64,000 nucleotides of DNA from a virus. The notes beneath the pieces were generated by a model. That model worked only from the letters and a program-made list of their open reading frames with translations. It made no database searches and was not told the origin of the DNA. Position numbers and translations under genes: made by a program. Below are positions 506-63,922 of the stretch, one piece after another; the first letter of the stretch is position 1; every line of letters begins with the position of its first letter. The DNA lies in IMG/VR virus record IMGVR_UViG_3300020420_000008, positions 82,610-146,609 of that record; one strand, 5' to 3'.

Positions 506-1402
506 ATGTATATGAACGCAGATATGATGAAGAAAACACTTAATTTATGTGATGAAGCTCACAAAGGATATGAAATAGGACTTAAAATATTACAGGATAA
601 AGGATATCTATCTTTATATAATGAACATGGAGAAAGTCATGCAGGTTTGATGACAATCCCTGAGTGGTTGCTTGTATATAGAACATTTGTTAATTCATAT
701 TGGCCCGAAGATAAAGTAAAAGAATTAGAAGATGCATACTCTCAAGAAGATAATGAAAATGATGTAACACCGAGTTTTAAAAATGATACAGCATTATTAA
801 AACAATTGTCAGATGTTTATGTTACTACTACTAAAGATAGAAATCCAGATTTAACAGAAGAAGAAATAAAATCTAAAGATAAACAATGGTGGTTTGACGA
901 GAATCAAGGTCCATATGGTTATTCATTTTGGATGATTGATAAAACAAAACCAGCACCTATTGAAGCCGTAATATATTGGAATAATCATACTGTAACAAAT
1001 GATTGGTATATAACAATAGATGGTTATGAAACACAAGGTACAAAAGAAGTATTAAATAACAAGACTGTAGAAGAAATAAAAGCTAGATTAGATGAATTAG
1101 TTACAGAGAGAGTAGGAGAACCATTAGCTTCTCAAGATGTAGAACCTGTTGACTTTGATGAATATGGTGGAGTAATAATGAATAAAAGTATGAAAGACGC
1201 TGATGATGAAGATACTTTTATGGTTACAGATCATCTAGGCAATTCAGTTGCGGTAGATGGTATGGAGAAAGCTATAGAAACTGCTACAGCATATAGAAAG
1301 GCTAAAGCAGAGTTTCAATTATCTTTTTTCATATGGAGAAAAATAACTGAACCAGGTGGTTATTTTGCTTGGAGAGAAGAGAATATAGCAGATTACTTAT
1401 AG
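506..1402 (+). CDS. hypothetical protein (acidic)
   Basis: 298 aa ORF with AGGA RBS and phage-typical codon use. Confidence 0.7.
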   Translation: MYMNADMMKKTLNLCDEAHKGYEIGLKILQDKGYLSLYNEHGESHAGLMTIPEWLLVYRTFVNSYWPEDKVKELEDAYSQEDNENDVTPSFKNDTALLKQLSDVYVTTTKDRNPDLTEEEIKSKDKQWWFDENQGPYGYSFWMIDKTKPAPIEAVIYWNNHTVTNDWYITIDGYETQGTKEVLNNKTVEEIKARLDELVTERVGEPLASQDVEPVDFDEYGGVIMNKSMKDADDEDTFMVTDHLGNSVAVDGMEKAIETATAYRKAKAEFQLSFFIWRKITEPGGYFAWREENIADYL

Positions 1403-1411
1403 TACTCATAT

Positions 1412-1419
1412 TATAAATA
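1412..1419 (+). promoter_or_regulatory. T4-type late promoter TATAAATA
   Basis: Exact gp55 consensus in an intergenic gap. Confidence 0.85.
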
Positions 1420-1441
1420 GTACATAAACAAAGGTGTTAAG

Positions 1442-1792
1442 ATGGGTGCTAAAGCTAACATAGTCGTGGATCAAGGTACAGATTTCGCAACAACAATCAC
1501 TGTTAGAGACAATAGTGGTGTTGCTGTAAATCTTACAAACTACACCGGACATGGACAAATAAGAAAACATTATACTTCAACTGTTGCACATAATATGCAG
1601 ATAGTATTTGAAAGTCCAAGAGAAAGTGGGCAATTAACAATGAAGCTATCTAGAGGACAGACAGCAAACTTAGCTTCGGGAAGATATGTTTATGATGTAG
1701 AAGTAACAGATAGTGCAAACACACGTTCAAGATTGATAGAAGGCATAGTCACAGTAACACCACAAGTAACACGCAGTAACGAGAGTACATAA
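1442..1792 (+). CDS. small virion structural protein (Ig/BppU-N-like)
   Basis: NIVVDQGTDF...GRYVYDVEVTD...RLIEGIVTVTP pattern typical of marine T4-like virion proteins. Confidence 0.7.
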   Translation: MGAKANIVVDQGTDFATTITVRDNSGVAVNLTNYTGHGQIRKHYTSTVAHNMQIVFESPRESGQLTMKLSRGQTANLASGRYVYDVEVTDSANTRSRLIEGIVTVTPQVTRSNEST

Positions 1793-1794
1793 AA

Positions 1795-4700
1795 ATGGCG
1801 GACTTTGATGTTACGCTAGGTTCAAATAAAGGTAACTTAAATGTAGAGTTCGATAAACCTACGCAAGATTTAACTTTAAAGAATCAGGCGGCTACTAAGA
1901 CAAATATAAGAGACTTCAACGATGTTGATAGCAACACTTTTCAAGGTGCACCGGCGGCGAATGGTGAGTCTATACTTGTCTATAATGCCAATACAAAACT
2001 CTTTCAGTTACGCTCAGGTAATATAAGACTTAGAGAAAATCCAGCACATTATTCAGGATTAAAGTATACAGCCGAAGGTGCTTTTATACCTGACACAAAC
2101 AATGCTTACGATTTAGGTTCTCCAGGAAGAAGATTTAGAACACTATTCTTATCTGGCGAAACAATTAAGTTAGGTAATTTAAATCTTTCTGATTCAGGTG
2201 ATACAATCACTATCACAAAAGATACTATTATCGATGGTGTTATTCAGAATGTTGTTATTGGTACTCTCAGCACACAAACTCTAAACACAGATAATTTTGA
2301 AGCCGCCAATCTAGTAGCGAATAGTACATTTACTGTAGAAACACCAAGAGCCTTTTTTAATCAAGGTATGACTGTAAAGTCGGGTGTCATACAAGCGAGT
2401 AATACACATCTTCATGCAAATAATATATCGATAAGAAATAATCTAACTGTCAACGGTGCTATCATACTCAGAGGTAGCACAATGAATCTTGGTGATGGCG
2501 GTGATGTCATAAATCTTGGTGCTACAGTTAATACTAGTATTTTACCTACAAGTTCTAATTTGCTTGATATTGGTGCGCCTGCACAGAAATACGCAAATGT
2601 ATTTACAACAAGCGTAAAAGGTTTACAAACACCAACAGAAGGTACAGATGGTGCTAATAAAGCATATGTAGACGATAGTATAGGCAATATAAGCACAACG
2701 GCAGATGGCACAACACTAGGTACTGGTTTCAATACACTGAATGATGGCGCATCAGTAGGATTTCAAGCTAGTGATAATTTAATATCCACTCTTGATAATA
2801 TCAATGAGACAGCTTTTAATATTTTTAAAAATACATATGTTCGTGATGTAACTTTTGCTTCAGATAAAACATCAGGTGGTGCTGGCACGACTGTTACTCT
2901 TACATTGACTGTAACAGGAAATGCAACTAGATTTGATATTAATTGGGGCGATGGTTCTACTGATACTGACGTAACTGATACAACACCGAGTCATACATAT
3001 ACATCAAATGCAGGTTCTCCATATACAGTTGTAGTTACTGCTAGAAATCATAATGCTATTTCAGGTTCTAAGGGAAGTTCAGCATCTTTTACAAGAACAA
3101 ATTTCATAACAATATTCTTAGCTGATCCAGTTCCTTCATTTACTATTCATGATGCATCGACAGATGGTAACTTAATAACAACAACATCTACAGGTGTACC
3201 GGTATATTTAAATAATACAACGACTAATATACCAAATACAGCTATTACAGCAACTTTCTCCGTAAATTGGGGAGACGGCACTGCTACTGAAAATGTTACA
3301 GGAAAAACAGAAAATGGTGGACCTCAAGGTGGTAGGTTAGCACACACATATACAAATGCATCAGGTACAGGAAGACATACAGTAACACTAAACGTAGTTA
3401 GTTTTGATGCTGGTGATCCTTCTGTTCTGCCTCTCAGTACAACTTCATTGATAAAAGTATTTGATGCTTCTATAGCATCACCTAATCATCTAGGTACAAA
3501 GACAATATCGCTCAACACTTCTTCTGTTGGTACGAATCCTAAAGTTGCATCAGGTTTTACAACAAACGGTGTTTCAGGAACAAACGCTGGTGATAACGTA
3601 ACTCGCTATACTACATCAGGTGCAATTGCAACTGCCGCCATGGGCTCATTTTTCTTTCAAGCAGATGGTGGTACTCTAAGTGCATTTGTAGATGGTAGTG
3701 CAGACGGACAAAAAGCTATTACTAATGCAAATGATGAAGGAACTTTTACAAGTCTCATCATTGACGATGAGCAAGATTATAACAGCTTTGATGCAGATGG
3801 CAATACTGTAGCAGTAAATAGTAGAATATATGCTCCAGGATTATTCGAAGGTTATAAAGCACGAATATCAAAGAGTAATTTCTCAACAGGCTTACACTCT
3901 CTTCAATTACAATCAACTGCTGGTAATACTAACACATTGAAGTTTATCAGAGATGATGTAACAATAACACCTACAACAAGTGTAGGTTCTGCAACACTTA
4001 CACAGGCGTCAGCTGGTACATTATCTTATATATCAGGTATACCTTACTATACAAATGATGCAACACTCACTCTTGCTGGTGTAACTGTACAAAGTTTTAC
4101 AGGACAAACTTTTCAAGACACAACATCACCTGTAGTAGTAGAAAACTCTACTGACTTAGAAGGCACATCAGGTAATGCAATAGGAACAAATAACTTTACA
4201 TACGCAAATATAGATGGTAGTACAACTATGTTAGAAAGTGGTACACCAAAAGTAAATATAGGAACAGCATCACCTTACGCTCTAGGTAATCTTACAGTAA
4301 ATGTAAATGGTGGCGGTAAACGTGTAGAAAGATTACAAGTAAAAGCAAAGAACTCAAACGGAACTGGTAGTGCTGTAATATTAGCATCGCCTGCAATACA
4401 AGCATATAATGGTAGTAAATCGTTTGATGAGACTGCGATACCTGTATCAGACTCACTAGGTGCTGGCTTTGATAATGATGCCAAACGTATTCATAGTTTG
4501 ACTGGTGGTGCAGTAGCATTTAGTAATTCTACTGATTACTTTGCAGATAACGCTTTTACAGGTGCCCAAACAGTAGCAGGCACAACTGAAGCGATAGTGC
4601 GATACGATACACTAAAGCACTTCACAACTGATTTGTCAAGTGGTTATTTACCAGCTGGACCTAATTTAAATACAGGACGTTCAGGTGCCCAACATTTTGT

Positions 4701-9899: not shown

Positions 9900-11456
9900 A
9901 TGCCTAGTGTTAATGTAATAACCTTAAAACGGTCCGCCGTTAAGGGTAAAGTCCCTACAATTAGTAACCTGACTTCAGGTGAATTGGCAGTTAACACTAG
10001 AGATGGTAGACTATATTCAGCAAACACTACTCACGTATATGAAATAGGTGCAAATCCCCATAACCTAACAGTGGGTTCTGGTGGATTTTCTATTGCAAAT
10101 GGTAATATTACATTTCCTAGTGCAGATGGTACTGAAAATCAAATACTTAAAACAGATGGAGCAGGCACTCTTTCATTTCAAGATGCAGGCTCAATAGGTA
10201 CAACCAATCTAACTCTCACAGGTAATACAGCTTTCTCAGGCAACAATATCTTTGCTGGTACTGTTACTTTTAATGAAGAAGTAACATCAACACAACAATT
10301 TAACTTTGAAGGACCGGTTACATTTAAAGGTGACGCAGTTTATCAAGGTTCTTCAAGACACACCGCAAATGTTTCCATTCGTGCTTCTCTCGCTGTACAG
10401 CAATATGAATTTACATCTAATACAGGACAAACATTATTTAAAGGTACTTCAGATAGTCAAGGACTTTTAAGTTATACTCCTGGTAATATATCAGTATATA
10501 AAGATGGTATAAAATTACGTCCCACTATAGACTTTGCAGAAACGGATTCTGGCACTGTTACACTTCAAGACGGAACATCTAATAATAATATTATTACAAT
10601 TGAACAATATGGTTCAAATCATTTTCAACATTACACTTATGTTGCAACAAACGGACAAACAACATTTACAGGTGCTGACTCTACAGGAAAAACATTATCA
10701 TATACTGCACAAAATCCTTTAGGCGGTGGTGTTAAAGTATATCTAAACGGTGTAAGATTACGAGCAAATACAGATGTTGTAGCAACAAACGGAACAGATG
10801 TTGTTCTTCAAGATGGTACAAGTAATAATGATGTTGTGATGATTGAATCTTTAGGTGCTTATCCTTATCAATCATTTGAATATACAGCAATCAAGGGACA
10901 AACAACATTTAACGGACTTGATAGATTTGGTAAACAGTTAGAATATGAAATAGACAAAGCTACAGTCTACTTAAATGGTGTAAAACTTAAAGAAGGCACA
11001 GACTGGACTGCTATTAATGGTGAAAGAGTTGTATTACAAGAACCTGTTTCAAATAATGATGTTATAACTATTGACTCACATGGACCGGAACCTGCAATCC
11101 TTTCCGCTCAAAATGAAATTCATTATGCTAATACAACAGTTCTAAAAACAAAAGAGATTTTATTATTTGACGATTTATCATCAACAGTTGTAGATCAATT
11201 TCCTACAACAGATTTCATTTCAGCACAATATCTTATACAAGCTACAAATCCAAACGGCGTATCATTTGCCACCTACAATGTTGCACATGATAGAGGACAA
11301 TCATTCTTATCAGAATTTGGACGTATAAATAGCAATGGAAGTATTATGACAGTTACCTCAGATGTTTCTGAGAACTTGTTAAGAATTAAGGTTGAGCCAC
11401 AGACAACAAATACAAAGCTTAAAATTCAAGCTACAAGAATGAGGAAAGCAAGATAA
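9900..11456 (+). CDS. tail fibre protein with three tandem beta-domains
   Basis: Same N-terminal anchor motif as 6665; three repeats of 'GQTxF...VYxxGxxL...D...LQ...NNxxI'. Confidence 0.8.
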   Translation: MPSVNVITLKRSAVKGKVPTISNLTSGELAVNTRDGRLYSANTTHVYEIGANPHNLTVGSGGFSIANGNITFPSADGTENQILKTDGAGTLSFQDAGSIGTTNLTLTGNTAFSGNNIFAGTVTFNEEVTSTQQFNFEGPVTFKGDAVYQGSSRHTANVSIRASLAVQQYEFTSNTGQTLFKGTSDSQGLLSYTPGNISVYKDGIKLRPTIDFAETDSGTVTLQDGTSNNNIITIEQYGSNHFQHYTYVATNGQTTFTGADSTGKTLSYTAQNPLGGGVKVYLNGVRLRANTDVVATNGTDVVLQDGTSNNDVVMIESLGAYPYQSFEYTAIKGQTTFNGLDRFGKQLEYEIDKATVYLNGVKLKEGTDWTAINGERVVLQEPVSNNDVITIDSHGPEPAILSAQNEIHYANTTVLKTKEILLFDDLSSTVVDQFPTTDFISAQYLIQATNPNGVSFATYNVAHDRGQSFLSEFGRINSNGSIMTVTSDVSENLLRIKVEPQTTNTKLKIQATRMRKAR

Positions 11457-11818
11457 TGGCAAAGAGTAAGGCAAGAATATTTGCAGATTTAGCAGATAAG
11501 TATTCGCAAGTATCAACGACAGCAACAGGTACAGCAATACAAACAGTTGACTCTGTACAAGCTTTAGATACTAGTTCTGTAGTTTTTAATATTATGGCAA
11601 CAAAAGGAACCGACTTTCATTATTGTACTGTAGTAGTCGCTATGACTTCAGCTACAGATTGTGACTTTACACAGTTCGGTGATATTCAATCTTCTAATCT
11701 CGTTACTTTTACGGCAGACTCAGACATAGGTCCTCCTAGAATTTTAAGACTCAGAGCAACGCCTGCAACTACTGGTACCCTAAATCTAAAAATAACACGC
11801 ATAGGCGTTGCTAGATAA
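11456..11818 (+). CDS. small virion protein, similar to the C-terminal domain of the upstream fibre
   Basis: 'VD...FG.I.S...LR.R..P.T...LKI' pattern shared with the last ~90 aa of 9900..11456. Confidence 0.65.
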   Translation: MAKSKARIFADLADKYSQVSTTATGTAIQTVDSVQALDTSSVVFNIMATKGTDFHYCTVVVAMTSATDCDFTQFGDIQSSNLVTFTADSDIGPPRILRLRATPATTGTLNLKITRIGVAR

Positions 11819-39122: not shown

Positions 39123-39426
39123 CAAAATAACTGTTATTGATCCTTTGAAGATGGAGTTTGTTACTGATATGGGTATGCCTGCTATGCATTCAACTTTTTG
39201 GATACCTTTGTCGAAAGAAGAAATTAGCATTGACATAGACATGTCACATGTGATAATATGTACGGAAGCACCTACAGATTTATCGCAGTTTTATACTAAC
39301 TCTATGATTAAAATAAAACAAGGCGATACTGAAGAAAGTAAAAAACTTATTGAGGAGAAAGTTAAGAATGCTATTAAACAATTCACAAAGCATACATCTA
39401 ATACAAGTAGTTGGACAATGCACTGA
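39055..39426 (+). CDS. conserved hypothetical protein between uvsW and gp55 (Sm-like)
   Basis: IKLTSGETILA N-terminus; conserved position in marine T4-likes. Confidence 0.7.
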   Translation: MIVIIKLTSGETILARQFYRSNDKITVIDPLKMEFVTDMGMPAMHSTFWIPLSKEEISIDIDMSHVIICTEAPTDLSQFYTNSMIKIKQGDTEESKKLIEEKVKNAIKQFTKHTSNTSSWTMH

Positions 39427-43289: not shown

Positions 43290-43290
43290 A

Positions 43291-43497
43291 ATGTGGAATG
43301 TGCCAAATATATTAAAATTTAAAAAACCTGAAGTAGAATCTAAAGAAATAGAAATAAAAGAAGTAGATACTAGAGTAAACATACACACACTCTACAAACA
43401 TAGATGGGTTTGGTATCATTTGATATTATGTATACAAGTGATCTTGACAAACATACTTTTAGTTGGTATACTAGTAACATTAGCAATAAAATTATGA
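43291..43497 (+). CDS. small membrane protein
   Basis: C-terminal hydrophobic segment; start at 43276 or 43291. Confidence 0.6.
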   Translation: MWNVPNILKFKKPEVESKEIEIKEVDTRVNIHTLYKHRWVWYHLILCIQVILTNILLVGILVTLAIKL

Positions 43498-43503
43498 GAG
43501 ACA

Positions 43504-44811: not shown

Positions 44812-44820
44812 TGCTATTAT
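44791..44820 (+). promoter_or_regulatory. sigma70-type promoter TTGACT-N18-TATTAT
   Basis: -35 at 44791-44796; TGc-TATTAT at 44815-44820. Confidence 0.6.
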
Positions 44821-44852
44821 AGAATCATCAAATTAAAGAGAGGTATTATATT

Positions 44853-46256: not shown

Positions 46257-46259
46257 AGG

Positions 46260-46288
46260 TTGACATTCATATCGTTTTGAGTCATACT
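46260..46288 (+). promoter_or_regulatory. sigma70-type promoter TTGACA-N17-CATACT
   Basis: Intergenic, correct spacing. Confidence 0.65.
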
Positions 46289-46317
46289 GTAAGAGTAATA
46301 AGAGAGAGTGATTCGTA

Positions 46318-48570
46318 ATGACATTAAATATTCAATCAAAAGAAGTTCTTGCACGGCTACTCGCCACTGAGAACATTACTGTTGAGCATCAAAATGTTTC
46401 TACTGCGAGTTTCAATGTAAAAGATCGAGTTCTAATATTGCCTATGTGGGACGATATGCAGAACTTCACATATGATCATTTAGTTGGACATGAAGTAGGA
46501 CATGCTTTATTCACTGATGCTGACGAATGGGCTTCAGCTATCGAAAAGCACGGCAAGAACTTCAAAGGTTTTCTAAACATCGTAGAAGATGCTAGAATAG
46601 AAAAGAAAATCCAGAGAACATATCCTGGTTTGAAAAGATCCTTCATTCAATCATACAAGAAAATGTTGAGTGAGGGTTTTTTCGGTAGAGATGAAACAGA
46701 AATCAATACTTTCGAACTTATTGATAGACTCAATGTTTACTTCAAGTGCGGTATGTCAACTGGTACAAAATTTGCTGATGATGAAAAGAAGTGGTTAGAC
46801 ATTATCGCTAAGATAGAAACTCAAGATGAAGCTTACAAAGTTGCTCTTGAGTTATTTGAGTTAGCAAAAGAGAAAAAAGAAAAAGAGCAACAGGCTCAAA
46901 AAGAGTCAGAAGAGGAGATGCAAGAAGATGGAGAAGATGATGATAATTTCAGCTTTGCTGACGGTGACATGGATTATGACGATTATGATATCGATGAAGA
47001 TGGAGACGATAGTTCTGAAGATGGCTCTAGCGAAGGCGAAAGCGAAGACTCAGATTTAGAAGAAACTGAAGAAGAACTAAAAGGTTCTGGTGAGAAGAGC
47101 GACTCTGAAGATAAAGAAGAAGAAGTAGAAACACCAGTTCAACAAGTTTCACATTCAAAAGTCGGTGGTGAGTCACCTGAGCCTCTAAATCCTAATCTAC
47201 CTATTGCAGAAACTGACGCTTTGTTAGAAGATAACATAAAGTCTTTAAGTCCTACAAATGGTAAAGCAGTTATCAATGTGACACTTGATATGAACTTAAA
47301 GACATATCAAGATAGAATTTTTAGTTACAAGAAAATACTTTCTGATAAAGATACTGGCGGTGCGATACATGCTGGTTCTGGTATGTACAAAGATTTTCAA
47401 GTCAACAATAAAAAAGCTATCAACTACATGGTAAAAGAATTTGAAATGAAGAAAAAAGCTTCTGAGTATAAGAGAGCAACAGTTTCTAAAACTGGTGTTC
47501 TTGATACACTCAAGATGAACAACTACAAATTCTCTGATGATATCTTCAAGAAAATGACAATCGTTCCTGATGGTAAAAATCACGGACTAGTAATGTTCAT
47601 AGATTGGAGTGGTTCTATGGCAAGCAATCTTTCTAACACTGTTGATCAGTTGATTAATTTAGTTAGCTTTTGCCGACAAGTTCAGATACCTTTTCAAGTT
47701 TATGCTTTCAGCGATAACAGTACACTAGCTTATGATATGTTTGGTAATAGAGAAGCTAAAGAAAAAATGAGAGTCAATACAAAAGGTTATACTACTCTAC
47801 AAGATGATTTTCACCTACTTGAGTTCTTCAACAATAAAATGTCAAGAACTGAGTTTCAGAAAATGTGTGCTTTTGTACTAGCAGTTGGTAAGTATTGGGA
47901 AAATAGATACAGACTCGATAGTAAGTATGGCGAATATTGGGTTCCAAGAAAGTTCTGGTTGTCAGGTACTCCTTTGAATGATGCAATACTTTCTGCTCAT
48001 GCAATAGTAAAAGCTTTTCAAAAGACTAATAGAATTGACATAGTGAATACAGTATTCCTAACTGACGGTGCTAGTAACTATTCTTACTACAATAGAGATT
48101 ATGCTACTAGAGCAAACATTGCACCATGGAATGAGACTTGGATATTCACGAATGAAGTTACTAAAAAGTCTTTACGATTAACTCAAAGCGGTACAAATAG
48201 ACTTGGTATCAATACAACTCCGACACTTCTAAAGTCTCTAGCTGACTACACAAATTCGAATGTGATTGGATTTCACATTCTACCTAAAAACAAGAGAACT
48301 GCACTAAATGATATGGGACACGATTTAAAGCACCACCAAAAAGAGAGTATGTGGGCTAGATTACTTCACGATTCATTTGTAGTGAATACCACAAATGGTT
48401 ATACTAAGCAGTTTCTAGTTCAAAGTTCAAAGCTTGCAACATCTAATGGTGCTATCGAAGTTGACGATGGTGCTACAAAAGGAAAGATTAGACAAGCTTT
48501 CAAAAAAGCTACTACTGGTTCTAGAACTAGTCGAGTGATGTTATCACAATTTATTGAATTAGTAGCTTGA
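46318..48570 (+). CDS. CobT-like metallopeptidase/vWA protein
   Basis: LARLLATENI, HEVGH, NIVEDARIEK, acidic linker, DWSGSM MIDAS, FLTDG. Confidence 0.88.
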   Translation: MTLNIQSKEVLARLLATENITVEHQNVSTASFNVKDRVLILPMWDDMQNFTYDHLVGHEVGHALFTDADEWASAIEKHGKNFKGFLNIVEDARIEKKIQRTYPGLKRSFIQSYKKMLSEGFFGRDETEINTFELIDRLNVYFKCGMSTGTKFADDEKKWLDIIAKIETQDEAYKVALELFELAKEKKEKEQQAQKESEEEMQEDGEDDDNFSFADGDMDYDDYDIDEDGDDSSEDGSSEGESEDSDLEETEEELKGSGEKSDSEDKEEEVETPVQQVSHSKVGGESPEPLNPNLPIAETDALLEDNIKSLSPTNGKAVINVTLDMNLKTYQDRIFSYKKILSDKDTGGAIHAGSGMYKDFQVNNKKAINYMVKEFEMKKKASEYKRATVSKTGVLDTLKMNNYKFSDDIFKKMTIVPDGKNHGLVMFIDWSGSMASNLSNTVDQLINLVSFCRQVQIPFQVYAFSDNSTLAYDMFGNREAKEKMRVNTKGYTTLQDDFHLLEFFNNKMSRTEFQKMCAFVLAVGKYWENRYRLDSKYGEYWVPRKFWLSGTPLNDAILSAHAIVKAFQKTNRIDIVNTVFLTDGASNYSYYNRDYATRANIAPWNETWIFTNEVTKKSLRLTQSGTNRLGINTTPTLLKSLADYTNSNVIGFHILPKNKRTALNDMGHDLKHHQKESMWARLLHDSFVVNTTNGYTKQFLVQSSKLATSNGAIEVDDGATKGKIRQAFKKATTGSRTSRVMLSQFIELVA

Positions 48571-48640: not shown

Positions 48641-49819
48641 ATGTATTTATCACCACGTAAAAAGCTTTTTGTCGATACCGCCACCAGCAAGTTTGGTGTC
48701 GGTGCGATTTTAAATCGACAAGAAGTTCAAAGTGCCGCCGATGATGCAAACATTCCATTTCCATGGTGGTTCTGGAAAACTGCTAAAGTCGGTTACAATC
48801 AGTTTCAACTACCTTCAGTAGGTGGTCCTGAAACAGTTACTGCAACTATGACAGGTGTTGCACCTGTCGCATCTAGTGATGCACAGGTTAATTTACAACC
48901 TGCACCTAAAGTTTCTCTTTCAGTAGAGACTACTGCTTTTACAGAAAATCTAGTACCAGCAGTTGATCCTTTATTTGTTCCTTTTGGTAACTTCACCAAG
49001 ATAAAGCAGATAATATCTTCAAAGATGTTCTATCCTGTTTACGTTACTGGTTTGTCAGGTAACGGAAAAACTTTCGGTATTGAGCAAGCATGTGCCCAAG
49101 CCCGAAGAGAAGTTATTCGAATTAACTTCACTGTAGAAACTGATGAAGATGATCTTATCGGTGGTTTTAGACTCATCGATGGCGATACTAAGTTCTTCAA
49201 AGGTCCTATCATCAATGCGATGGAGAAAGGCGCAGTTGCTTTACTTGACGAGTTAGACTTAGCTAACCCTGCCAAAGTAATGTGCTTACAATCAATTCTT
49301 GAAGGCAAAGGTTACTTCATTAAAAAGACAGGTGAGTTTATCAAGCCTGCTCCTGGTTTCACCGTGATTGCTACTGCGAACACAAAAGGTAAAGGTTCTG
49401 ACGATGGTAGATTCATCGGTACTAACGTGATGAATGAAGCTTTCTTAGAAAGATTTCCTATCACTGTTGAGCAAGAGTATCCACCAGTTGCTACTGAAAA
49501 GAAAATACTTGGTAAAGTATTTACTGACTTGGGTATCTCTGACGATGGTTTTGTTGCCAAGCTTGTTGATTGGGCTGACATTATCAGAAAAACTTTCTAT
49601 GATGGTGGTGTCGATGAAATCATTTCAACCCGAAGATTAGTTCACATAGCGAAAGCTTTCTCAATCTTCAACGATAAAATGACAGCCATCGATATGTGCA
49701 TCAATCGATTTGACGAGGACACCAAGTTGTCATTCAAAGACTTGTACACCAAAATCGATGTAGAAGTTTCAGAAACACCTGACACTGCTATTGAGAATGA
49801 AGAAGAGATTCCATTCTGA
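48641..49819 (+). CDS. cobS: CobS-like MoxR AAA+ ATPase
   Basis: GLSGNGKT, ETDEDDLIGG, LLDELD, TANTKGKGSDDGRFIGTNVMNEAFLERF. Confidence 0.9.
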   Translation: MYLSPRKKLFVDTATSKFGVGAILNRQEVQSAADDANIPFPWWFWKTAKVGYNQFQLPSVGGPETVTATMTGVAPVASSDAQVNLQPAPKVSLSVETTAFTENLVPAVDPLFVPFGNFTKIKQIISSKMFYPVYVTGLSGNGKTFGIEQACAQARREVIRINFTVETDEDDLIGGFRLIDGDTKFFKGPIINAMEKGAVALLDELDLANPAKVMCLQSILEGKGYFIKKTGEFIKPAPGFTVIATANTKGKGSDDGRFIGTNVMNEAFLERFPITVEQEYPPVATEKKILGKVFTDLGISDDGFVAKLVDWADIIRKTFYDGGVDEIISTRRLVHIAKAFSIFNDKMTAIDMCINRFDEDTKLSFKDLYTKIDVEVSETPDTAIENEEEIPF

Positions 49820-49912: not shown

Positions 49913-50800
49913 TTGGAAATACAAATTGAATTAGCTGAATTACGTAAGAAAAAAATATTCGTAGCTACGCCAATGTATGGTGGTATGTGTCACGGTATGT
50001 ACACTAAAGCATCATGCGACTTAGCAAAAATAACACAAGCGTATGAGATGGATGTTAAGATGTTCTATCTCTTTAATGAGTCTCTAATTACCAGAGCAAG
50101 AAATTATTGTGTTGACGAATTTCTACGTAGCGATTATACTCATATGATGTTTATAGATTCTGATATTGGTTTTGATCCTAACGATGTATTATCTTTAGCT
50201 ATTATTGCTGATGAAGGTAATAGAGATATCGTATGTGGTCCATATCCAAAGAAAACTATAGCTTGGGAAAAAATTAAAAAAGCAGTTGAGATGGGATTCG
50301 GAGATAAAAATCCTAATGAACTAGAAAACTTTGGTGGAGATTACGTATTTAATCCAGCTAGTGATGCTTTAGAAATGAGACTAGATGAACCTATCGAAGT
50401 GTTAGAGGGTGGTACAGGTTTCATGATGATAACTAGAAACGCTTTTAAGAAATTTGATGAAGCATATCCAGATTTGAGATATTTTCCCGATCATGTTAGA
50501 ACAAAACACTTTGATGGTAGTAGAGATATCGGTATGTATTTTCAAGCACTAATAGATCCAGAGTCAAAAAGATATCTTTCAGAAGATTATATGTTTTGTC
50601 AGTGGATGAAAAAAGCTGGAGTACCAACATGGTATTGTCCTTGGATGAAATTATCCCACACAGGTAGTTATGTATTTGGTGGTAGTTTATTAGATTTAGC
50701 ACAATTAGGTGTATCAGCAACTGCCGATCCAGTAGAAATTGAAAAAACTAAAAAGAAGGAACCAAAAGGCATACAACTTAACTTAGGAGAAATTGAATGA
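49913..50800 (+). CDS. glycosyltransferase-like (GT-A fold) protein
   Basis: FVATPMYGG...ESLITRARN...FIDSD (DxD)...GTGFMMI...LSEDYMFC; TTG start with AAGGA RBS. Confidence 0.7.
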   Translation: MEIQIELAELRKKKIFVATPMYGGMCHGMYTKASCDLAKITQAYEMDVKMFYLFNESLITRARNYCVDEFLRSDYTHMMFIDSDIGFDPNDVLSLAIIADEGNRDIVCGPYPKKTIAWEKIKKAVEMGFGDKNPNELENFGGDYVFNPASDALEMRLDEPIEVLEGGTGFMMITRNAFKKFDEAYPDLRYFPDHVRTKHFDGSRDIGMYFQALIDPESKRYLSEDYMFCQWMKKAGVPTWYCPWMKLSHTGSYVFGGSLLDLAQLGVSATADPVEIEKTKKKEPKGIQLNLGEIE

Positions 50801-53499: not shown

Positions 53500-54005
53500 T
53501 GGGGAGAAGAATGAGATATACTACCAACTTTGATAAAGTAGAAGATTTTATGAGAGCATTTGGACAAGATGTAAAAGATAACCCTACTATGTTAGATGAA
53601 AAAACTTTACAACTAAGATTAGAACTTATAGAAGAAGAACTGAGAGAGTTATATCTTGGTGTTGAAAGAAAGAACATGTTAGAGATTGCTGATGCTCTTA
53701 CTGACTTACTGTACGTTACATACGGCATGGGTGCCGCCATGGGTATAGAACTAGACTATTGTTTCGATGAAGTTCATAGAAGTAACATGTCGAAGTTAGG
53801 TGAAGACGGTAAACCAATCTATAGAGAAGATGGTAAAGTGTTAAAAGGTCCCAACTACAAACCACCAAACATGTATGATACAGTATATCATGAAGAAGTA
53901 TTAGCAAAGCTAAACAAAATAGAAGAAAATTCTCCTAATGTTGATAGGGATCAATTAGCACAATTAAGTTTATTTGACGATGACTCTGCCGTCACAGGTA
54001 AGTGA
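53499..54005 (+). CDS. MazG-like NTP pyrophosphohydrolase (PRA-PH family)
   Basis: LIEEELREL...ADALTDLLYVTYG...EVHRSNMSKL...DGKVLKGPNY. Confidence 0.88.
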   Translation: MGRRMRYTTNFDKVEDFMRAFGQDVKDNPTMLDEKTLQLRLELIEEELRELYLGVERKNMLEIADALTDLLYVTYGMGAAMGIELDYCFDEVHRSNMSKLGEDGKPIYREDGKVLKGPNYKPPNMYDTVYHEEVLAKLNKIEENSPNVDRDQLAQLSLFDDDSAVTGK

Positions 54006-54613: not shown

Positions 54614-55219
54614 ATGTTTGGACTATTTAAGAAGACGGGTTTAAAAAAGCAAGCTAAAACTGCTACTAAACCTAAGACAGAAACAAAAGCGAAAAAGGAC
54701 AATGGTATGGCGAAATCAAATTATGATAAGTGTTTAAAAATAATTCTACATCATGAAGGTGGATATGTAAATCACCCAAAAGATCCTGGTGGAGAAACTA
54801 ACCTCGGAGTTACTAAGAGAGTATATGAAGAGTGGGGTGGTAAAAAGAATATGAAAGATTTGAAAGTTGCTGACGTTGCACCAATATATGAAAAGAACTA
54901 TTGGGGACGTTGTAAATGTGATAGCTTACCAGCTGGTTTAGATTTATGCGTCTTTGATTTTGGTGTTAACGCTGGAACAAAAAGGGCAGGCATCTATCTA
55001 CAAAAAATGGTTGGTGCAACTCCTGACGGAGCAGTTGGACCTAATACACTAAAACAAGTTGACGCTTGGATAAAAGAACATGGTGTAGAACACGCTGTCA
55101 AATCTTATCAAGAAGCACGACAAGGATATTATGAAAGACTTTCTACTTTTAAAACTTTCGGTAGAGGTTGGACAAGAAGAGTTACAGAGACTACGGAAAC
55201 AGCTTTAAAGATGATCTAA
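54614..55219 (+). CDS. GH108 lysozyme/endolysin with peptidoglycan-binding C-terminus
   Basis: HEGGYVNHPKDPGGETNLGVT...FDFGVNAG...FGRGWTRRV. Confidence 0.92.
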   Translation: MFGLFKKTGLKKQAKTATKPKTETKAKKDNGMAKSNYDKCLKIILHHEGGYVNHPKDPGGETNLGVTKRVYEEWGGKKNMKDLKVADVAPIYEKNYWGRCKCDSLPAGLDLCVFDFGVNAGTKRAGIYLQKMVGATPDGAVGPNTLKQVDAWIKEHGVEHAVKSYQEARQGYYERLSTFKTFGRGWTRRVTETTETALKMI

Positions 55220-55220: not shown

Positions 55221-58200
55221 ATGGTTTACAGAAACAAAACATTCGCTAACAATGTAGTCGTTGGTTTGAGTTCTGGAAAAGTTGAGTTAAGTGCTGACAG
55301 TGGAGATTTAAAAATCAAATCTGGTGGCTCAACAGCAACAGTTCGTCCAGGACTAGGCATAGTAGAACAACAGTCATTTGCAATTGTTGCTAACAAGGCG
55401 GCACTACCATTACCTCCCACAGGTATAAATAACGGAGCTTTATACTTTACTACTGCATCTAGTGAATTGTTTATGAAATCAGGTGGTGGTTGGTATAGAG
55501 TATCGATGGTGAATACAAGTCCATCAATAACTCTAAACAAAACTACAGCAACAATAGATGCAAGCAATTTAACTTTAGATGTAAACTATACAACAGTAGA
55601 ACCAGAAGGTACACCAGTCACTGTTGCTTTAGCTAATTCAGGTATTGCTGATACAAATGTAGCTACTATTACACACACAACTTCAAACAATAATATACGA
55701 GTAGTATTCGATGGTTCTACCGATTTGACAGATGCAACAATCACTGCAACTGTCACAGATGGTGTAAATACAGGTGTAGGAACAATTACATTTACCACTG
55801 CATACTCTATAAAGCAGTCTAGAGATACTCTTGTATTATTAAAAGCTAATTCAGAAGGCGGACATAATTATTCATTCAGTGATCAATCTGATAGTAATCA
55901 TACTGTTACACCTACAGGACATGCAAGAACATCATCACATAGTCCTTATCGTCCTAATGGATATTCAATAAGATTAAATGGTGGTGGATATATCGATGTT
56001 GCCGCCTCTTCTGATTTTGAATTTACAGGACAGTGGACAATAGAATTTTGGTTTTGGGGTGATGAACAACAAAGTAGTTCAGGAGTATCAGGCTGGCATG
56101 ATATGTTTTCGTATGGAAGTAGTACATCACCAGCTTATATGGAAATAAACAATGATGGTTACGTTGCAACAAGTAGTGGTATGTTTGGTTCTGTTGGTAG
56201 TAATCAGAGTGGAGAAACACACCCGATAAAATGGAATCGCTGGAATCATATAGCTTTTAGTAGAGATGGTAGTAATGTTGTACGTCATTATGTAAACGGA
56301 AGATATATGGCAAAAGCTACAGTATCAGGAACAGTAGGCTCTTCAAGCACTAATCCAAGAATTGGTGATACTGGTGAGGCGGCTGATTGTCATTTATATG
56401 ATTATAGAATATCAAACACAGCTAGATATACTTCTGAATATGGTTTCGATTTACCTGATGCACCTCATGAAAGTGATGCAAATACAATGCTTCTTATCTG
56501 TAAAAATAATATGTTAAAAGATTACAGTTCAAGAGGACACGCAATAACTATCGGAGATCATAACTATGGCTCACGTTACAAATATTTAGGACATACACCT
56601 TTTGATAAAGGTGGTTATAATGCAAGTAAACATGGTAACTCTGCTATTCTAACAAATGCACGTTCAGCGTCTTACTTAAAGCTACCTCGCTCTGCCGATC
56701 TGTATGATTGGAATCCTTCAAGTGATCATTATACTCTAGAGTTTTGGTTATATCAAAGAGCCTTTAGAAAAGGTAGTCCTAATAATTCACCAAATATTTT
56801 TTCTCATGCAACAGGTACAAATAATACTTTTTATTGGGGTTTAGGTGCTAATCCAGAGGCTTCACCAGGAGGTGGTAAATTAAGTTTTTATTACTATAAT
56901 GGTAGTGCCCAACTTTTAACTGGAAGCACATTGATGTATGAAAATACATGGTATCATGTTGCTTTTCATAAAGACAATTCCGGTAATATAAAAATATATC
57001 TAAATGGTGTACAAGATATAAGTTCTAGTGTTTCTGGAACACCTCAAACAAATTCTGGTACTGATGTGTGGATAGGTAGAGCCCAAAATAGTACAGTTGC
57101 TAATTGTAATATAGCTGATGTTAGAATTGTAAGAGGTGAAGCAGTTTATACTGGAGCATTCACACCACCAACTGGCCCTCTTACAAAAACTGGTGGTACA
57201 TACTCATCAACAACAAATGTCAATACAGCTATAACTGCATCAAATACTAAATTACTTTTAAACTTTCCTACGGGAATAGAAGATTTAGCACAATGTTCAG
57301 ATCAGATAGAGTTTTATAAAACAAATAATTCGGATGTAGAGGGTGATACAGATGTAGTAAAATATACAGGTAAACCTACAATAAAAACTAACTATAGTAC
57401 TGGTTTTCTTAATATACATGCACCCTTACATGAGTTATATAATTCACCGTGGACAATTGAAATGTGGGTACGACTAACTCAAAGTGGACAGGCAAGTATA
57501 TTTTTTGACTCTGATTCAGGTACTTATGGTGGTAATCTTAATGCTCGAATGGATTATGCGGATAGTAGTAGAACTTTCTATATGGACTTAGCACTTAGCT
57601 TAACTAAAGCATACACTTCATCTGAAATAACATTTTTAAATACTTGGAATCATTTGGCTTTTCAGAGAAATCCCAGAAATTTTCAAGATAGTGATAACGG
57701 TATATTATCAGTATTTGCAAATGGTACTATATTAGCAAGTATGAACACACTTACAAATTATGCAAGTGCAAGTGCTGATGGTAATGTTTGGAGTGCTTTG
57801 AGACTTCTAGGTTCTCAAGGACCAGCTGGAGGTTATCAAGCGTTTACTGGTAACTCGCAAGATGTTAGAGTTTCGTCTATAGCAAGATATCCATTCATAC
57901 CGATAAAAAATACTTTAACAACTACAAATTCAGAAAGAACTGGTGTAAGTGTAAGTTCGGCATCTAATACAAAATTTCTTGCATTCACTACAACTACAAC
58001 CACAACAGATGCAACATCTGGACATACAATAACATCTCACGGAGGACCTACTGGTGTCAACTGGGGTCCTGCTCCTGGTATGAAATCTGTTTACTTTGAT
58101 GGTAGTGGAGATTATTTTACAGTGCCAACAAGCGATGCTTTGAATTTTGGCACAGGACACTATACAATGGAATTTTGGATTAACACACGACAATCTGGAG

Positions 58201-58621: not shown

Positions 58622-61600
58622 ATGGTAACAAAACTATCTTATACGGCAAATAGTATCACACTAGGCACAGGTACAAGTAAAGTTGTTTTAGGTGCAGACA
58701 GTGGCAATCTGATAGTAAAAGACTCACAGGCAAATACATCTATTCTTGAACCGGGACTTGGCGTACAAGGTGCTAGTGCTGTTGCAACTTATGCGAATCC
58801 TGCCGCCTTACCATTTAATCCTATATCATCTGCTGGTAGTTTAGCATATACGACATCAACTGGTGCATTATATATGTCAAATGGTTCTGGTTGGTATAAG
58901 ATAACATTAGTAAATACTGCACCATCTATTTCTTTATCATCAACAACTGCTAGTCCTACAGCTACAAATCTTACTTTAGATTTCACATACACTGTAACAG
59001 AACCAGAAGGCACTCCAACTAATGTTAGTATAGCTAACTCTGGTATTGCAACTACAGGTAATGTTGCTGTAACACATACAACAAGCAACAATCATGTGAG
59101 ATTAGTATTCGATGGTACTACGAAATATAGTGGAGATGCTTCTGTTACATTAACTGTAACAGATGGTGTCAATACAGGCACTGGAACTATAACAATCTCT
59201 ACTGCTTATTATTCCGGTACAAATACTTCCGAAACTGTTACATTATTAAAAGCTACAGGCACAGGAAATAATGACAATTGGGACGATAAGTCTCCAAGCA
59301 ATCACACTATTCTTGACTACGGAGCGATTGAACAAGTAGCTTTTAGTCCTTATCGTGACAATGGGTATTCAATATATTTTGATGGTAATGGAGATTATCT
59401 GACAATTCCTGATAGTTCTGATTTTGATTTTACTACAGGCAATGGTGACTTTACCATAGAATCTTGGATATATAAAACAAATGCTTCTGAATCTGCGTGG
59501 TATACTCAAAGAGATAGTTCAACAGCAGAACTTATGATTTTTTTAGATCATAATATATCTGGATATTCAGCAGGATCAGTTTCAATAGAGTATGATTCAG
59601 CACAATATACATTTAATGCTGGTATACAACAAAATAAATGGCAACATATTGCTTTAGTAAGAACTGGTACAACTGTTAAATGGTTTACAGATGGTATAGA
59701 AAGAGATAGTAGAAGTGAACCAGCTTCACTAGCAAATTATGCACATGAAATCTATATAGGCAGTTGGAGAACTTTATCAAGATATTATGAAGGTTACATA
59801 AGTGATTTAAGAGTAGTTAAAGGAACTGCGGTTTATACAGGAAACTTTACAACACCAACTAGTAGACTGACAAATGTAACAAATACAAAACTATTGATAG
59901 GCGGTAATAGTCTTAGTGATAATAAGCCTGCAACTACAGCAACGCAAAAATCATTATACTTTGGAACAAATAGTAATAATTACCTTCTCAATTATGGTGA
60001 TGAGTCTGCCTTAGAATTTGGTACAAACAGTTGGACAATTGAAGCTTGGATATATTCTACGGGAACTATGTCTAATGCTGGTATTTTCAGTAGAGGTGCT
60101 AACGGATCTTTTTGGCATTCTTTACATATGACTAGTGCATCAACCATTAAATATGTTTTAAGTAATGGTGCTGGACAAGAATGGAACTTTACTAGTAGTG
60201 GTAGTCAGATACCAACAAATACGTGGACTCACGTAGCACTTGTAAGAAGATTTGGTACTGATATAAAACTATATGTAAACGGAACTGCAATTAAAACTGA
60301 CACATCTTCTGCTTCTACAACACTAGGTGATAGCACTGGAGATTTCAAAATAGGATTTGAAAGATTCCAAGGAAGTGGTGGTGGTTTCAACGGGTATATT
60401 TCTAACTTTAGATTTGTAAACGGCACTGCGGTTTATACAGGAAACTTTACAACACCATCAAGTCCATTGACTAATATTACAAACACAGTAATATTACATC
60501 ATGGATTAACAAATGAAGTTAGTGGTGGTGTAGGAAATCCAACAAACACCAGTGTGACTGTAAATAATCTTAGTCCTTTCAATACTATTCACACAATTAC
60601 ACCTAATGGTGATGTTTTTATGGCGGCATATTCTCCTTATGATAGAGAAAATGCATATACAACTGCAACAGGTGGTGGATCTGCTCGTCTACGTCCTCAA
60701 GGAGGTAATGATTATTTTGGAGCAACATCTTCTTCAGATTTTGCTATGGGAACAGGAGACTTTACTTTAGAAGTATGGGTTTATCCAGAAAACTTATCAG
60801 TTCATCAAATGATTTTGGATACTATTACTCCAGGAGTTTCAGGTAGTCAAGCTGGTAGATTTGTTGCTTATTTAAATCCTAACAAACTAGCTTATTATCG
60901 TCCAGGAACAGGAACTACTACATCAAGCGGATCGCAAACTGTAAAACTGTTTTCATGGAATCATCTCGCATGGGTTAGAAATAGTGGTACTCTAAAAATG
61001 TACTTAAATGGAGAAGAAACACATAGCGTTGCAGAAACATATAATTTTTCACTAACAAATTTAAGCTTAGGAAGAGATGCCGCCAGTGGTGGTGCAGGAC
61101 AGGCAAGATCCTACTGGAGTGATCTTCGTTTAGTGAAAGGCACTGCCGTATACACAAGTGAGTTTACTCCACCAACTGCACCTCTTGGAACTATATCAGG
61201 AACTGTTCTTCATTTACCATTCACAGATTTTAGAATCTTTGATAAATCTCAAAGCTATCTACCACCTCAGTCAGTAAGCACAGATCGTCTTGGTATAAAT
61301 GGTAGCGTTGTCGCATCATCTACACAACAACACTTTTCAGAAAACACTGTATATTTTGATGGTAGTAGTGATTATATCGATATTACAAATCCTATATCTG
61401 GACTTGAAGATCATACACATGAAGCATGGGTATATCCTACTGGTGGTGATTCTACTTATGGAGGTTTTTGGTCCTCAATCACAACAAATGGTGCTACAGG
61501 TATTAATGTATCAAGGGACTTAGCAGGAGGACCTTCCAATAGCTCGGCGGCTATAGCTACGTTTAGTGGAGGAGTACCAGCTGATGAATGGAGCCATGTC

Positions 61601-62523: not shown

Positions 62524-62778
62524 ATGCAAATAGGTAACGTAACTAATCAATATATCAATACATATATCAATGAGGGTACACAAGTTGCTAATCAACAGTA
62601 TGCTCAGAACCAACAGAGAGTAGAAGAGTATAATCAAGCACAGTGGCAAAGAGAGCAAGAGAAAAGACAGTATCAGTGGATGGCGTACATAATGATGATG
62701 CAGTTTTTCGCAAAGAACAATATGTGGAACATGCTAAACGATATGCGGATTCAAAGAACATTGGATATAATGGCATGA
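62524..62778 (+). CDS. small Gln/Asn/Met-rich hypothetical protein
   Basis: AGGAG RBS. Confidence 0.6.
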   Translation: MQIGNVTNQYINTYINEGTQVANQQYAQNQQRVEEYNQAQWQREQEKRQYQWMAYIMMMQFFAKNNMWNMLNDMRIQRTLDIMA

Positions 62779-62858
62779 ACAAAGAAGTATTTCTTACACA
62801 TTTCTCTATGCTAGTTATTGGTATAGTTACTGGTTACGCAATATATAATTATCTGTAA
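62775..62858 (+). CDS. 27-aa single-TM peptide (MNKEVFLTHFSMLVIGIVTGYAIYNYL)
   Basis: ATGA overlap with the upstream stop; hydrophobic. Confidence 0.4.
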   Translation: MNKEVFLTHFSMLVIGIVTGYAIYNYL

Positions 62859-62859
62859 A

Positions 62860-62890
62860 GTTTCATAAAACCTTCATACTTACATTTCAT
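62860..62890 (+). promoter_or_regulatory. putative PhoB box
   Basis: GTTTCAT-AAAA-CCTTCAT (11-nt period) plus a third TTTCAT, upstream of pstS. Confidence 0.65.
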
Positions 62891-62971
62891 AAGAAAAACT
62901 AAATAAAAAAATAGAGAACCATGGTAGTGATTCTCTATTAAGTTCAACAGATTTTAAAGAAAGGAAATTCT

Positions 62972-63922
62972 ATGAATAAATCAGTTGTAATACTATTTAG
63001 TATAATTATTTCTCTATTTTCAGCAAACTTTGCATTTTCTAGAGAATACGTAACGTCAGTAGGTTCTTCTACTGTATATCCATTTACAACTTTAGCCGCC
63101 GAAAAATTCGCAAAATTAGGCAATGCATCACCCGTTGTAGAGTCAACAGGAACTGGTGGAGGAATGAAATTATTTTGTGCCGGTATTGGACTTAACACAC
63201 CAGATTTGACTGGTGCATCAAGAGCCATCAAAAGTTCCGAAGTAGAACTTTGTGAAAAAAATGGTGTAACACCATTAGAAAATCTTATAGGTTATGATGG
63301 TATTACATTCTCAAACTCAAAGAAAGCTAAACAACTCTCTGTAACAAAAGAAGAAATATATAAAGCGGTTTCTCTTAAAATCGAAGGTAAAGATAATCCT
63401 TACATTTATTGGAGTGATATAAATCCAGAACTACCTAAAATGAAAATAGATGTCTTAGTACCACCACCATCATCAGGTACAAGAGATGCTTTCGTAGAAC
63501 TTGTACTACATTCTGTATGTAAGAAAATATACAAAATGCCTAAGAAAGGTGTAGATGGATATAAGCAGAATTGTTCTGCATTAAGAGAAGATGGACTAGT
63601 TACTGAAACAGGTGAAAATGATAATCTTGTTGTAGAGAAACTAACCTCAGATATAAATCGATTTGGTGTATTCGGATTTTCTTTCTTAGATCAAAATAAA
63701 GACAAAGTTCAAGGTTCTATCGTAGATGGTGTTGCTCCTACATTTGATACTATTGCAGATGGTTCTTACAAAGTATCACGTCCTTTATTCTTCTATGCAA
63801 AGAAAGAACACCTTGGTATTATTCCAGGACTTCAAGAATTTGTTGATTTCTATAATTCAGATGTAATCATAGGACAAGATGGTGTTGCCTCATCTAGAGG
63901 ACTTATACCTCTTGCAAAGTAA
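62972..63922 (+). CDS. pstS: phosphate ABC transporter substrate-binding protein PstS
   Basis: Signal peptide; VGSSTVYPF, ESTGTGGGMKLFCAG, ASRAIK, SGTRDAF, Y.VSRPLFFY. Confidence 0.92.
   Translation: MNKSVVILFSIIISLFSANFAFSREYVTSVGSSTVYPFTTLAAEKFAKLGNASPVVESTGTGGGMKLFCAGIGLNTPDLTGASRAIKSSEVELCEKNGVTPLENLIGYDGITFSNSKKAKQLSVTKEEIYKAVSLKIEGKDNPYIYWSDINPELPKMKIDVLVPPPSSGTRDAFVELVLHSVCKKIYKMPKKGVDGYKQNCSALREDGLVTETGENDNLVVEKLTSDINRFGVFGFSFLDQNKDKVQGSIVDGVAPTFDTIADGSYKVSRPLFFYAKKEHLGIIPGLQEFVDFYNSDVIIGQDGVASSRGLIPLAK

Follow-up and report, generated by a model that had tools for sequence, protein, structure and literature searches.

Near-complete loss of GACC without a 5' G from a marine T4-like phage genome, a possible footprint of nuclease avoidance at the limit of the genetic code

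Avoidance of restriction sites in virulent double-stranded DNA phages was reportedly described by Sharp in 1986 and by Rocha in 2001. EcoP1I has the site AGACC, and the AvaII/SinI-type (GGWCC) and HaeIII-type (GGCC) systems belong to Type II. In Helicobacter pylori, ModH5 is a natural Type III system reading G(m6A)CC, and GACC is under-represented in the genomes of that species (PMC5700931). A hypermodification at GpC[C/T] that involves a C5-methyltransferase, TET and a glycosyltransferase has been described in phages (Burke et al. 2021; PMC8256090). The present work concerns the tetranucleotide GACC, with its complement GGTC, in a stretch of virus DNA of 64,000 nucleotides (the window), which comprises bases 82610-146609 of the linear IMG/VR record IMGVR_UViG_3300020420_000008. 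The record is 146.6 kb long, is estimated to be about 76% complete, and is called the genome below. Nearly every GACC/GGTC that lacks a 5' G is missing from it, and the explanation that we favour, with about an even chance of being right, is that the genome carries the footprint of nuclease avoidance pressed to the limit of the genetic code.

GACC/GGTC without the preceding G was counted on both strands as HGACC/GGTCD (HGACC for short). Expected numbers came from shuffles of synonymous codons inside single genes, by which protein and codon usage are preserved, with 200 such shuffles for the window. The window contains 12 GACC and 12 GGTC, compared with 193 expected for the two together from a first-order Markov model, and all 24 are part of GGACC or GGTCC. 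Not one HGACC is present, although the shuffles predict 135.3±9.3 and never yielded fewer than 108. Over the whole genome one HGACC was found against 289±13 expected, and GACC/GGTC in any context occurs 53 times against 421 (Markov) or 348±12 (shuffle). These 53 are made up of 52 GGWCC and a single AGACC, which lies beyond the window at genome position 62200. When all tetranucleotides were ranked under the codon-aware null, GACC was the most depleted in the genome, with the lowest z-score. The identical purge is seen in separate assemblies from IMG/VR, TARA, JGI and ENA, and is therefore not an assembly artefact. An earlier reading of the letters of the window (the original prediction) had stated that GACC/GGTC is strongly avoided and that all of its roughly 24 occurrences are GGACC or GGTCC; the automated count gives the same picture by the Markov and the codon-shuffle expectation, leaves HGACC nowhere near its expected frequency, and places each of its example sites (908, 3319, 10311, 24391, 49202 and 58044) correctly.

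The route of removal can be read from codon pairs across the genome. Arg-Pro is written CGT-CCN 32 times, CGC-CCN twice and AGA-CCN never, and Gly-Gln together with Gly-His uses GGA 139 times, GGG 15 times and GGT not at all, two habits that the original prediction had already picked out. Asp preceding a codon that starts with C is GAT in 215 cases and GAC in one, so that Asp-Pro, Asp-His and Asp-Gln are written GAT-CNN, another synonymous exit from GACC. Trp-Ser is TGG-AGY 32 times and TGG-TCC once. The motif thus lies far under its codon-aware expectation on both strands, and its removal was synonymous with the protein kept, as the codon-pair tables and the orthologous Val-Asp-Gln and Gly-Pro sites demonstrate. 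Every GACC/GGTC without a 5' G has been removed from the window through synonymous recoding, and the genome keeps only the one AGACC.

The absence and the sites that survive in the window are as follows.

1-64000, both strands: HGACC/GGTCD absent from coding and non-coding DNA alike (0 vs 135.3±9.3)
908-912, + strand: GGTCC, Gly-Pro GGT-CCA, in frame
3319-3323, + strand: GGACC, Gly-Pro GGA-CCT, in frame
4657-4661, + strand: GGACC, Gly-Pro GGA-CCT, in frame
9931-9935, + strand: GGTCC, not Gly-Pro, CGG-TCC (Arg-Ser), two rare codons
10311-10315, + strand: GGACC, Gly-Pro GGA-CCG, in frame
11082-11086, + strand: GGACC, Gly-Pro GGA-CCG, in frame
11729-11733, + strand: GGTCC, Gly-Pro GGT-CCT, in frame
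24391-24395, + strand: GGACC, Gly-Pro GGA-CCT, in frame
24841-24845, + strand: GGACC, Gly-Pro GGA-CCA, in frame
27727-27731, + strand: GGACC, Gly-Pro GGA-CCT, in frame, tail sheath gene
32621-32625, + strand: GGTCC, Gly-Pro GGT-CCA, in frame
32896-32900, + strand: GGTCC, Gly-Pro GGT-CCA, in frame
34895-34899, + strand: GGTCC, Gly-Pro GGT-CCA, in frame, major capsid gene
45249-45253, + strand: GGACC, Gly-Pro GGA-CCT, in frame
48824-48828, + strand: GGTCC, Gly-Pro GGT-CCT, in frame
49202-49206, + strand: GGTCC, Gly-Pro GGT-CCT, in frame
50237-50241, + strand: GGTCC, Gly-Pro GGT-CCA, in frame
53847-53851, + strand: GGTCC, Gly-Pro GGT-CCC, in frame
55037-55041, + strand: GGACC, Gly-Pro GGA-CCT, in frame
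57819-57823, + strand: GGACC, Gly-Pro GGA-CCA, in frame
58044-58048, + strand: GGACC, Gly-Pro GGA-CCT, in frame
58065-58069, + strand: GGTCC, Gly-Pro GGT-CCT, in frame
61470-61474, + strand: GGTCC, not Gly-Pro, TGG-TCC, the sole exception among 33 Trp-Ser to TGG-AGY
61529-61533, + strand: GGACC, Gly-Pro GGA-CCT, in frame

As the rows make plain, the surviving GGWCC sites are almost exclusively Gly-Pro dipeptides (22 of the 24 in the window and 50 of the 52 in the genome). GGW-CCN stands in frame within called genes in 49 of the 52, and one apparently intergenic site is a Gly-Pro inside an open reading frame (ORF) of 67 amino acids. The dipeptide has to be written GGN-CCN, which yields GGWCC when N is A or T and GGCC when N is C or G. 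GGCC is also purged from the genome (7 observed vs 98), five of the seven remaining copies being forced by Trp-Pro (TGG-CCC), and 49 of the 51 Gly-Pro pairs use GGW. Because Gly-Pro forces the site in this way, the total of GGWCC shows no overall depletion (52 vs 58 expected). One of the two sites in the window that are not Gly-Pro, at 9931, forms codons 11-12 of the gene at 9900-11456, is part of an RsrII-type CGGTCCG and sits within the inverted repeat AACGG-TCCG-CCGTT (window 9925-9940), which may have been kept for a structural or regulatory role.

Where the code leaves a choice, GGWCC is nearly absent. In frame 2 (nnG-GAC/GTC-Cnn) there are 0 sites against 9.85 expected (P = 5e-5), and in frames 1 and 2 together 2 against 13.6 (P = 1.3e-4). 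Asp between a G and a C is GAT in all 21 instances and GAC in none, while elsewhere GAC makes up 48% of the Asp codons that follow a G (P about 1e-6). In relatives 25% of GGWCC lies outside the Gly-Pro frame, which would predict about 17 such sites here, compared with the 2 observed (P = 7e-6). Avoidance of the AvaII type is therefore seen, with GGWCC missing almost wherever it can be avoided synonymously. The dipeptide itself has been affected as well. Gly-Pro occurs 51 times against 105 expected from composition, whereas the corresponding ratio in 36 related loci is 1.11, and Ala-Ala, which must be GCN-GCN, is the sole dipeptide that is more depleted. Of the Gly-Pro pairs retained here 98% are also Gly-Pro in aligned relatives, but only 73% of the relatives' pairs are preserved in this phage; Gly-Pro has been thinned down to conserved positions. 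Since unforced copies are depleted and Gly-Pro is halved, GGWCC is not safe in this genome, and the survivors are tolerated as unavoidable. The safety of GGWCC in the window, which the original prediction had proposed, finds no support in these counts.

The phage is marine and T4-like. The window encodes the structural module of a T4-like myophage, with large terminase, tail sheath, portal, major capsid protein and tail fibres, together with gp46/47-like genes and a CobT-like peptidase. The DNA is 35-36% GC, and the + strand carries 146 of the 157 called genes. The nearest cultured relatives are the pelagimyophages Mosig and HTVC008M, whose nucleotide identity is no more than about 76% and is confined to short stretches. 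Purged relatives were gathered by protein scans with the capsid and gp41 and by exact-protein look-ups, and their expected numbers were again taken from codon shuffles. Lineage A denotes this phage and A-like loci.

A-like (G002, gp41 97% identity): HGACC 0 vs 80; GGCC 1 vs 18.5; GGWCC in Gly-Pro frame 15 vs 13.5; Gly-Pro all GGW
A' (L250, 89% nucleotide identity to window 35941-47655): HGACC 0 vs 22; GGCC 0 vs 2.6; four GGWCC, of which 1 Gly-Pro (GGA), 2 G-GAC-C and 1 intergenic
B (L254/G001, L001, L167): HGACC 1 vs 71; GGCC 45 vs 25, an excess; GGWCC in Gly-Pro frame 4 vs 12.6±1.3; Gly-Pro 12 GGS to 5 GGW
C (two sub-lineages, L262 and L087): HGACC 0 vs 46 and 1 vs 41; GGCC 15 vs 13 and 12 vs 13; GGWCC neutral in every frame; Gly-Pro 21 GGW to 3 GGS

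Loss of GACC without a 5' G is the trait common to all purged lineages, whereas GGWCC behaves independently of it: C and A' have it at neutral frequency, B has purged part of it, and in the present genome it is down to the coding limit. In L262 the GGWCC counts are 9 vs 9.7 in frame 0, 3 vs 0.5 in frame 1 and 1 vs 1.2 in frame 2, in L087 frame 0 gives 12 vs 10.2, and the Gly-Pro frequency of lineage C is as expected. A' has an unforced GTG-GAC-CAA where the same Val-Asp-Gln is written GTT-GAT-CAA here. Lineage B uses GGS in 12 of 17 Gly-Pro pairs, although GGS makes up 18% of all its Gly codons (P = 3e-6), its coding of the dipeptide differs from that of C (Fisher P = 2e-4), and of 12 orthologous Gly-Pro positions, 8 pair GGW in A with GGS in B. 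The GGCC purge is restricted to the A lineage. Because C and A' keep neutral GGWCC and B recodes Gly-Pro to GGS-CCN, HGACC, GGWCC and GGCC are shown to be three separable targets. The proposal that GACC becomes safe after a G is thereby borne out in one part, since the 5' G does matter, as C and A' demonstrate; it fails for the present genome, where 50 of 52 survivors are forced Gly-Pro.

Among the remaining relatives, about 2.3 Mb in all, HGACC is found 8830 times against 7423 expected and GGWCC 1461 times against 1502. HGACC is normal or in excess in the relatives at 81% or lower identity of the major capsid protein (MCP), lineage C excepted, and in the cultured SAR11 phage HTVC008M, where the excess is 200 vs 117. 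The purge thus varies among close relatives, and only two clades are purged. In a quick capsid tree these are well supported (A+B and C) and are not recovered as sisters, although one common origin of the purge may underlie both. A purge of GGWCC alone, with normal HGACC, was found in at least 14 other related loci, and AvaII-type avoidance is a common, independent trait among related marine myophages. In L014, L071, L072, L078, L079, L104, L131, L159, L243 and others, GGWCC is nil, HGACC is normal and Gly-Pro is written GGS-CCN. The locus L150 (17 kb, MCP 66% identity) may represent an intermediate or a different purge state: HGACC is partly depleted there (34 vs 58), chiefly as AGACC (8 vs 23), and GGWCC is 0 vs 12. 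HTVC008M (L272, 50000-99999) has some purges in common with the present genome, with observed and expected counts of 0/13 for CGCG, 0/6 for CTGCAG, 0/12 for GAATTC, 0/12 for AGATCT, 6/31 for GGCC and 31/105 for GATC, and GCAGC is normal in it.

Nuclease avoidance is the favoured explanation also in view of the other words that are missing. At least 10 further classical restriction sites have been driven down to the coding limit as well. CGCG is 0 vs 51, CTGCAG, AGATCT, GAATTC and AACGTT have no copy each, and GCAGC (11 vs 132) and GGATG (29 vs 164) are strongly depleted, with 14 of the 29 survivors of GGATG/CATCC being Trp-Met. That many classical restriction sites are treated alike points to nucleases as the selective agents. 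These would be DNA-cutting enzymes encountered in infection, most probably restriction enzymes of the host. One of them would read an asymmetric GACC-type site of 5 bp and spare GGACC, which would suit an enzyme of Type III or Type IIS, and two further ones would be AvaII-like (GGWCC) and HaeIII-like (GGCC). On this reading three purges operate in this genome, and those of GGWCC and GGCC collide at Gly-Pro. The collision accounts for the near-exclusive Gly-Pro survivors, the loss of half of the Gly-Pro pairs and the opposite codon solutions of A and B. The TET-associated glycosyltransferase (TAGT) proteins of B (L246:4248-5162) and C (L262:14315-15208) are 96% identical, although the capsid proteins of these two lineages are far more diverged (82% identity between A and C); this points to recent gene exchange and hence co-infection of a shared host pool.

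Several points weigh against nuclease avoidance as the explanation. No nuclease or host has been tied to the purge, none being shared among the regions of A, B and C that were compared, and a recognition site HGACC/GGTCD with G excluded at -1 was not found in the searchable literature. If the 52 GGWCC stay cleavable by an AvaII-like enzyme, the gain from losing the few unforced copies has to be assumed under a model of per-site risk. Within this genome alone HGACC plus GGWCC is indistinguishable from GACC in every context, and it is the sister lineages that separate the two. Finally, the part missing from the incomplete record could hold modification or nuclease genes.

A first alternative, which we consider unlikely, is that the phage avoids its own enzyme: a restriction-type nuclease of the phage would cut HGACC in host or rival DNA, and immunity would come from having no sites. 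The purge is near-absolute in every lineage (0-1 sites), as self-immunity demands, the neutral GGWCC of C fits an enzyme that does not cut GGACC, and genes are present for an HNH protein (window 44853-46253) and, within the baseplate cluster, for a restriction-like nuclease. However, in the available parts of B and C no nuclease was found that A, B and C have in common and that unpurged relatives lack, and no homologue of the HNH protein occurs in the loci of B or C. HGACC is normal in cyanophages with nucleases homologous to that of the baseplate cluster, with observed and expected counts of 217/189 in Syn19, 189/135 in S-RIM8 and 145/161 in ACG-2014f. The baseplate-cluster nuclease was rejected as the GACC cutter on these counts, which at 20-28% identity of the homologues are weak evidence. 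At least 10 other motifs are purged alike, too many for nucleases of the phage itself. A screen for genes restricted to the purged lineages returned just two, a membrane protein of about 70-74 amino acids after a methylase-like gene and a minus-strand ORF of about 116-117 amino acids at window 32110-32460. The latter overlaps better + strand genes (about 32167-32405 and 32416-32668) and was discarded as spurious; its seeming limitation to purged lineages is probably DNA similarity only.

It is likewise improbable that a single target suffices, with GACC read in every context here, GGWCC surviving as forced Gly-Pro, no AvaII-like pressure, and C differing for a separate reason. The forced survivors (50/52), the depletion of unforced GGWCC, the halving of Gly-Pro and the recoding of Gly-Pro in B are all in its favour, and it would spare one enzyme for lineages A and B. 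On the other hand, the two sub-lineages of C and A' have free GGCC or unforced contexts, and there GGWCC reaches or exceeds its expected number in the absence of HGACC. In B GGWCC is purged only in part, with 5 of 17 Gly-Pro pairs still GGW, in contrast to the 1 vs 71 of HGACC, and a purge of GGWCC only is common among relatives. As a general explanation, a uniform GACC target with forced survivors is refuted by the neutral GGWCC of C and A'.

The original prediction took the GACC pattern as independent support for a modification in GG/CC context, by the logic it had applied to GCNGC. In that scheme a nuclease would cut GACC in any context and a GG/CC-context modification by phage or host, perhaps on both strands of GGWCC, would act as a shield, leaving only HGACC to be purged. 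We regard this as distinctly unlikely for the present phage. Protection would look like the state of C and A', which lack HGACC and have neutral GGWCC whatever the frame, and the form that is spared coincides with the palindrome GGWCC, as would be expected of a methylase site. A methylated adenine (m6A) in GGACC might also mimic the cognate GACC methylation of the ModH5 type. In this genome, however, GGWCC does not evolve neutrally, as the empty frame 2 and the halved Gly-Pro attest. The gene content gives the idea no support either, and the GACC pattern does not count as independent evidence for the GCNGC proposal. No Pfam match to C5, N4/N6 or Dam methyltransferases or to TAGT (PF00145, PF01555, PF02086, PF20691) was obtained in the 146.6-kb record, itself about 76% complete; PF12851 (TET) had no match in it either, a result without weight since the control matched 0 of 14 reference genomes.

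The gene that could bear on protection lies in an island after gp46 (window 42759-46256), in which a methylase-like gene is followed by the small membrane protein, a DruA-like protein (PF14236, E 1.5e-22) and the HNH protein of 467 amino acids.

42759-43289, + strand: methylase-like protein of 176 amino acids with motifs YPTP, EPCAGDG and NPPW and no target-recognition domain, phrog_799

The protein matches phrog_799, 'DNA methyltransferase', with E 6.5e-35 and has no Pfam match; this gene adjoining gp46 is the sole candidate for a DNA-modifying enzyme that was found. Such a small NPPW gene stands directly after gp46 in all purged lineages, with homologues in the corresponding position of B, C and L150. 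In B (L246:3148-6546) and C (L262:11716-15217) the methylase is followed by TAGT (PF20691, E 8e-43), which could likewise be part of a shield. Against a protective role, the family has more than 6,500 members, and HGACC is normal in the unrelated phages among its carriers (observed/expected 72/67, 72/71, 49/49 and 82/78). Its alleles do not follow the phenotype. They are 52-64% identical to each other, the copy of this phage is closest to that of an unrelated phage, and between A and B gp46 is 98% identical but the methylase only 58%. The small methylase was thus rejected both as cause of the purge and as protector. Hypermodification by TAGT was rejected as the shield as well, because the TAGT proteins of B and C, at 96% identity, go with different GGWCC tolerance, B having recoded Gly-Pro off GGWCC in spite of its methylase-like gene and TAGT, and because the 146.6 kb of this genome gave no TAGT match. 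The known chemistry of C5-methyltransferase, TET and glycosyltransferase targets GpC[C/T] (PMC8256090), and GGWCC has no GpC.

GCNGC was looked at in the same genome. In-frame Ala-Ala accounts for 128 of its 140 sites, 9 are in other coding frames and 3 are intergenic. Nearly all are GCCGCC/GGCGGC or GGCWGCC, for example at window 6389 (GCCGCC), 5421 (GGCGGC) and 7589 (GGCAGCC). Ala-Ala is the most depleted dipeptide (128 vs 224), followed by Gly-Leu (162 vs 253), and the depletion of Gly-Leu is not due to GGTC alone, since GGA-CTN and GGT-TTR are available. The GCNGC survivors agree with the GpCpC half of the reported GpC[C/T] target (PMC8256090), but no C5-methyltransferase was found in the 146.6 kb. 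It is a doubtful proposition that an undescribed sequence-context modification, made by the small methylase together with the variable island after gp46, shields GGWCC and perhaps GCNGC flanked by GGC or GCC. If it did, the survivors would map its specificity, and the differences in GGWCC tolerance would reflect the methylase alleles.

An origin without selection, through mutational bias such as deamination of methylated GACC, through codon usage or through assembly, is scarcely credible: GAC, GTC, ACC and TCC are indeed rare codons here, but shuffles that keep the codon usage still expect 289 sites against the one observed, the possible deamination products GATC and AGTC show no excess, relatives have normal or excess HGACC, and the pattern repeats across many independent assemblies, so that all three were ruled out.

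With nuclease avoidance as the favoured explanation, the comparison with known systems is as follows. EcoP1I with AGACC and ModH5 with GACC appear to be the nearest known specificities. As with these Type III systems, the word is short and asymmetric with a GACC core, GACC/GGTC being non-palindromic. The footprint differs from theirs in the exclusion of G at -1, a specificity not described in the searchable literature, and in the purge of both orientations, where one would suffice for a Type III enzyme. The surviving GGACC and GGTCC on the + strand, at 23:29, show no orientation bias, and the single isolated AGACC is compatible with an enzyme of that kind and proves nothing. Nor are mod or res genes known here, unlike in those systems. 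A restriction specificity for GACC without a 5' G, undescribed so far, is predicted to exist in the marine host pool or in the phage.

The hypermodification at GpC[C/T] has a parallel in the sister lineages B and C, which carry TAGT (PF20691) in the island after gp46, and it is a context-dependent phage modification of the sort that the original prediction had in mind. Unlike that system, this genome has no match to a C5-methyltransferase or TAGT, the target GpC is not contained in GGACC or GGTCC, and B and C differ in GGWCC tolerance while sharing the TAGT. Survivors of a motif in an apparently rescuing context can be coding artefacts instead of modification footprints. With the AvaII/SinI and HaeIII targets the likeness is that precisely these palindromes lack unforced copies here.

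The case belongs with restriction-site avoidance in phages, of which it is a fresh and instructive instance. As there, short targets are lost synonymously, in a lineage-specific manner and for many sites in one genome. It departs from the usual form in that the word is asymmetric and behaves as the degenerate 5-mer HGACC, and in that the purge reaches the coding limit. One word of 4-5 bp has been wholly removed, which would make this phage an exceptionally clear case, furnished by nature, of a genome rewritten under nuclease pressure. A further departure is that the purges of GGWCC and GGCC collide on Gly-Pro, leaving a depleted dipeptide and opposite codons in sister lineages: where three purges clash on one dipeptide, the sisters have answered with opposite codons or with the loss of Gly-Pro.

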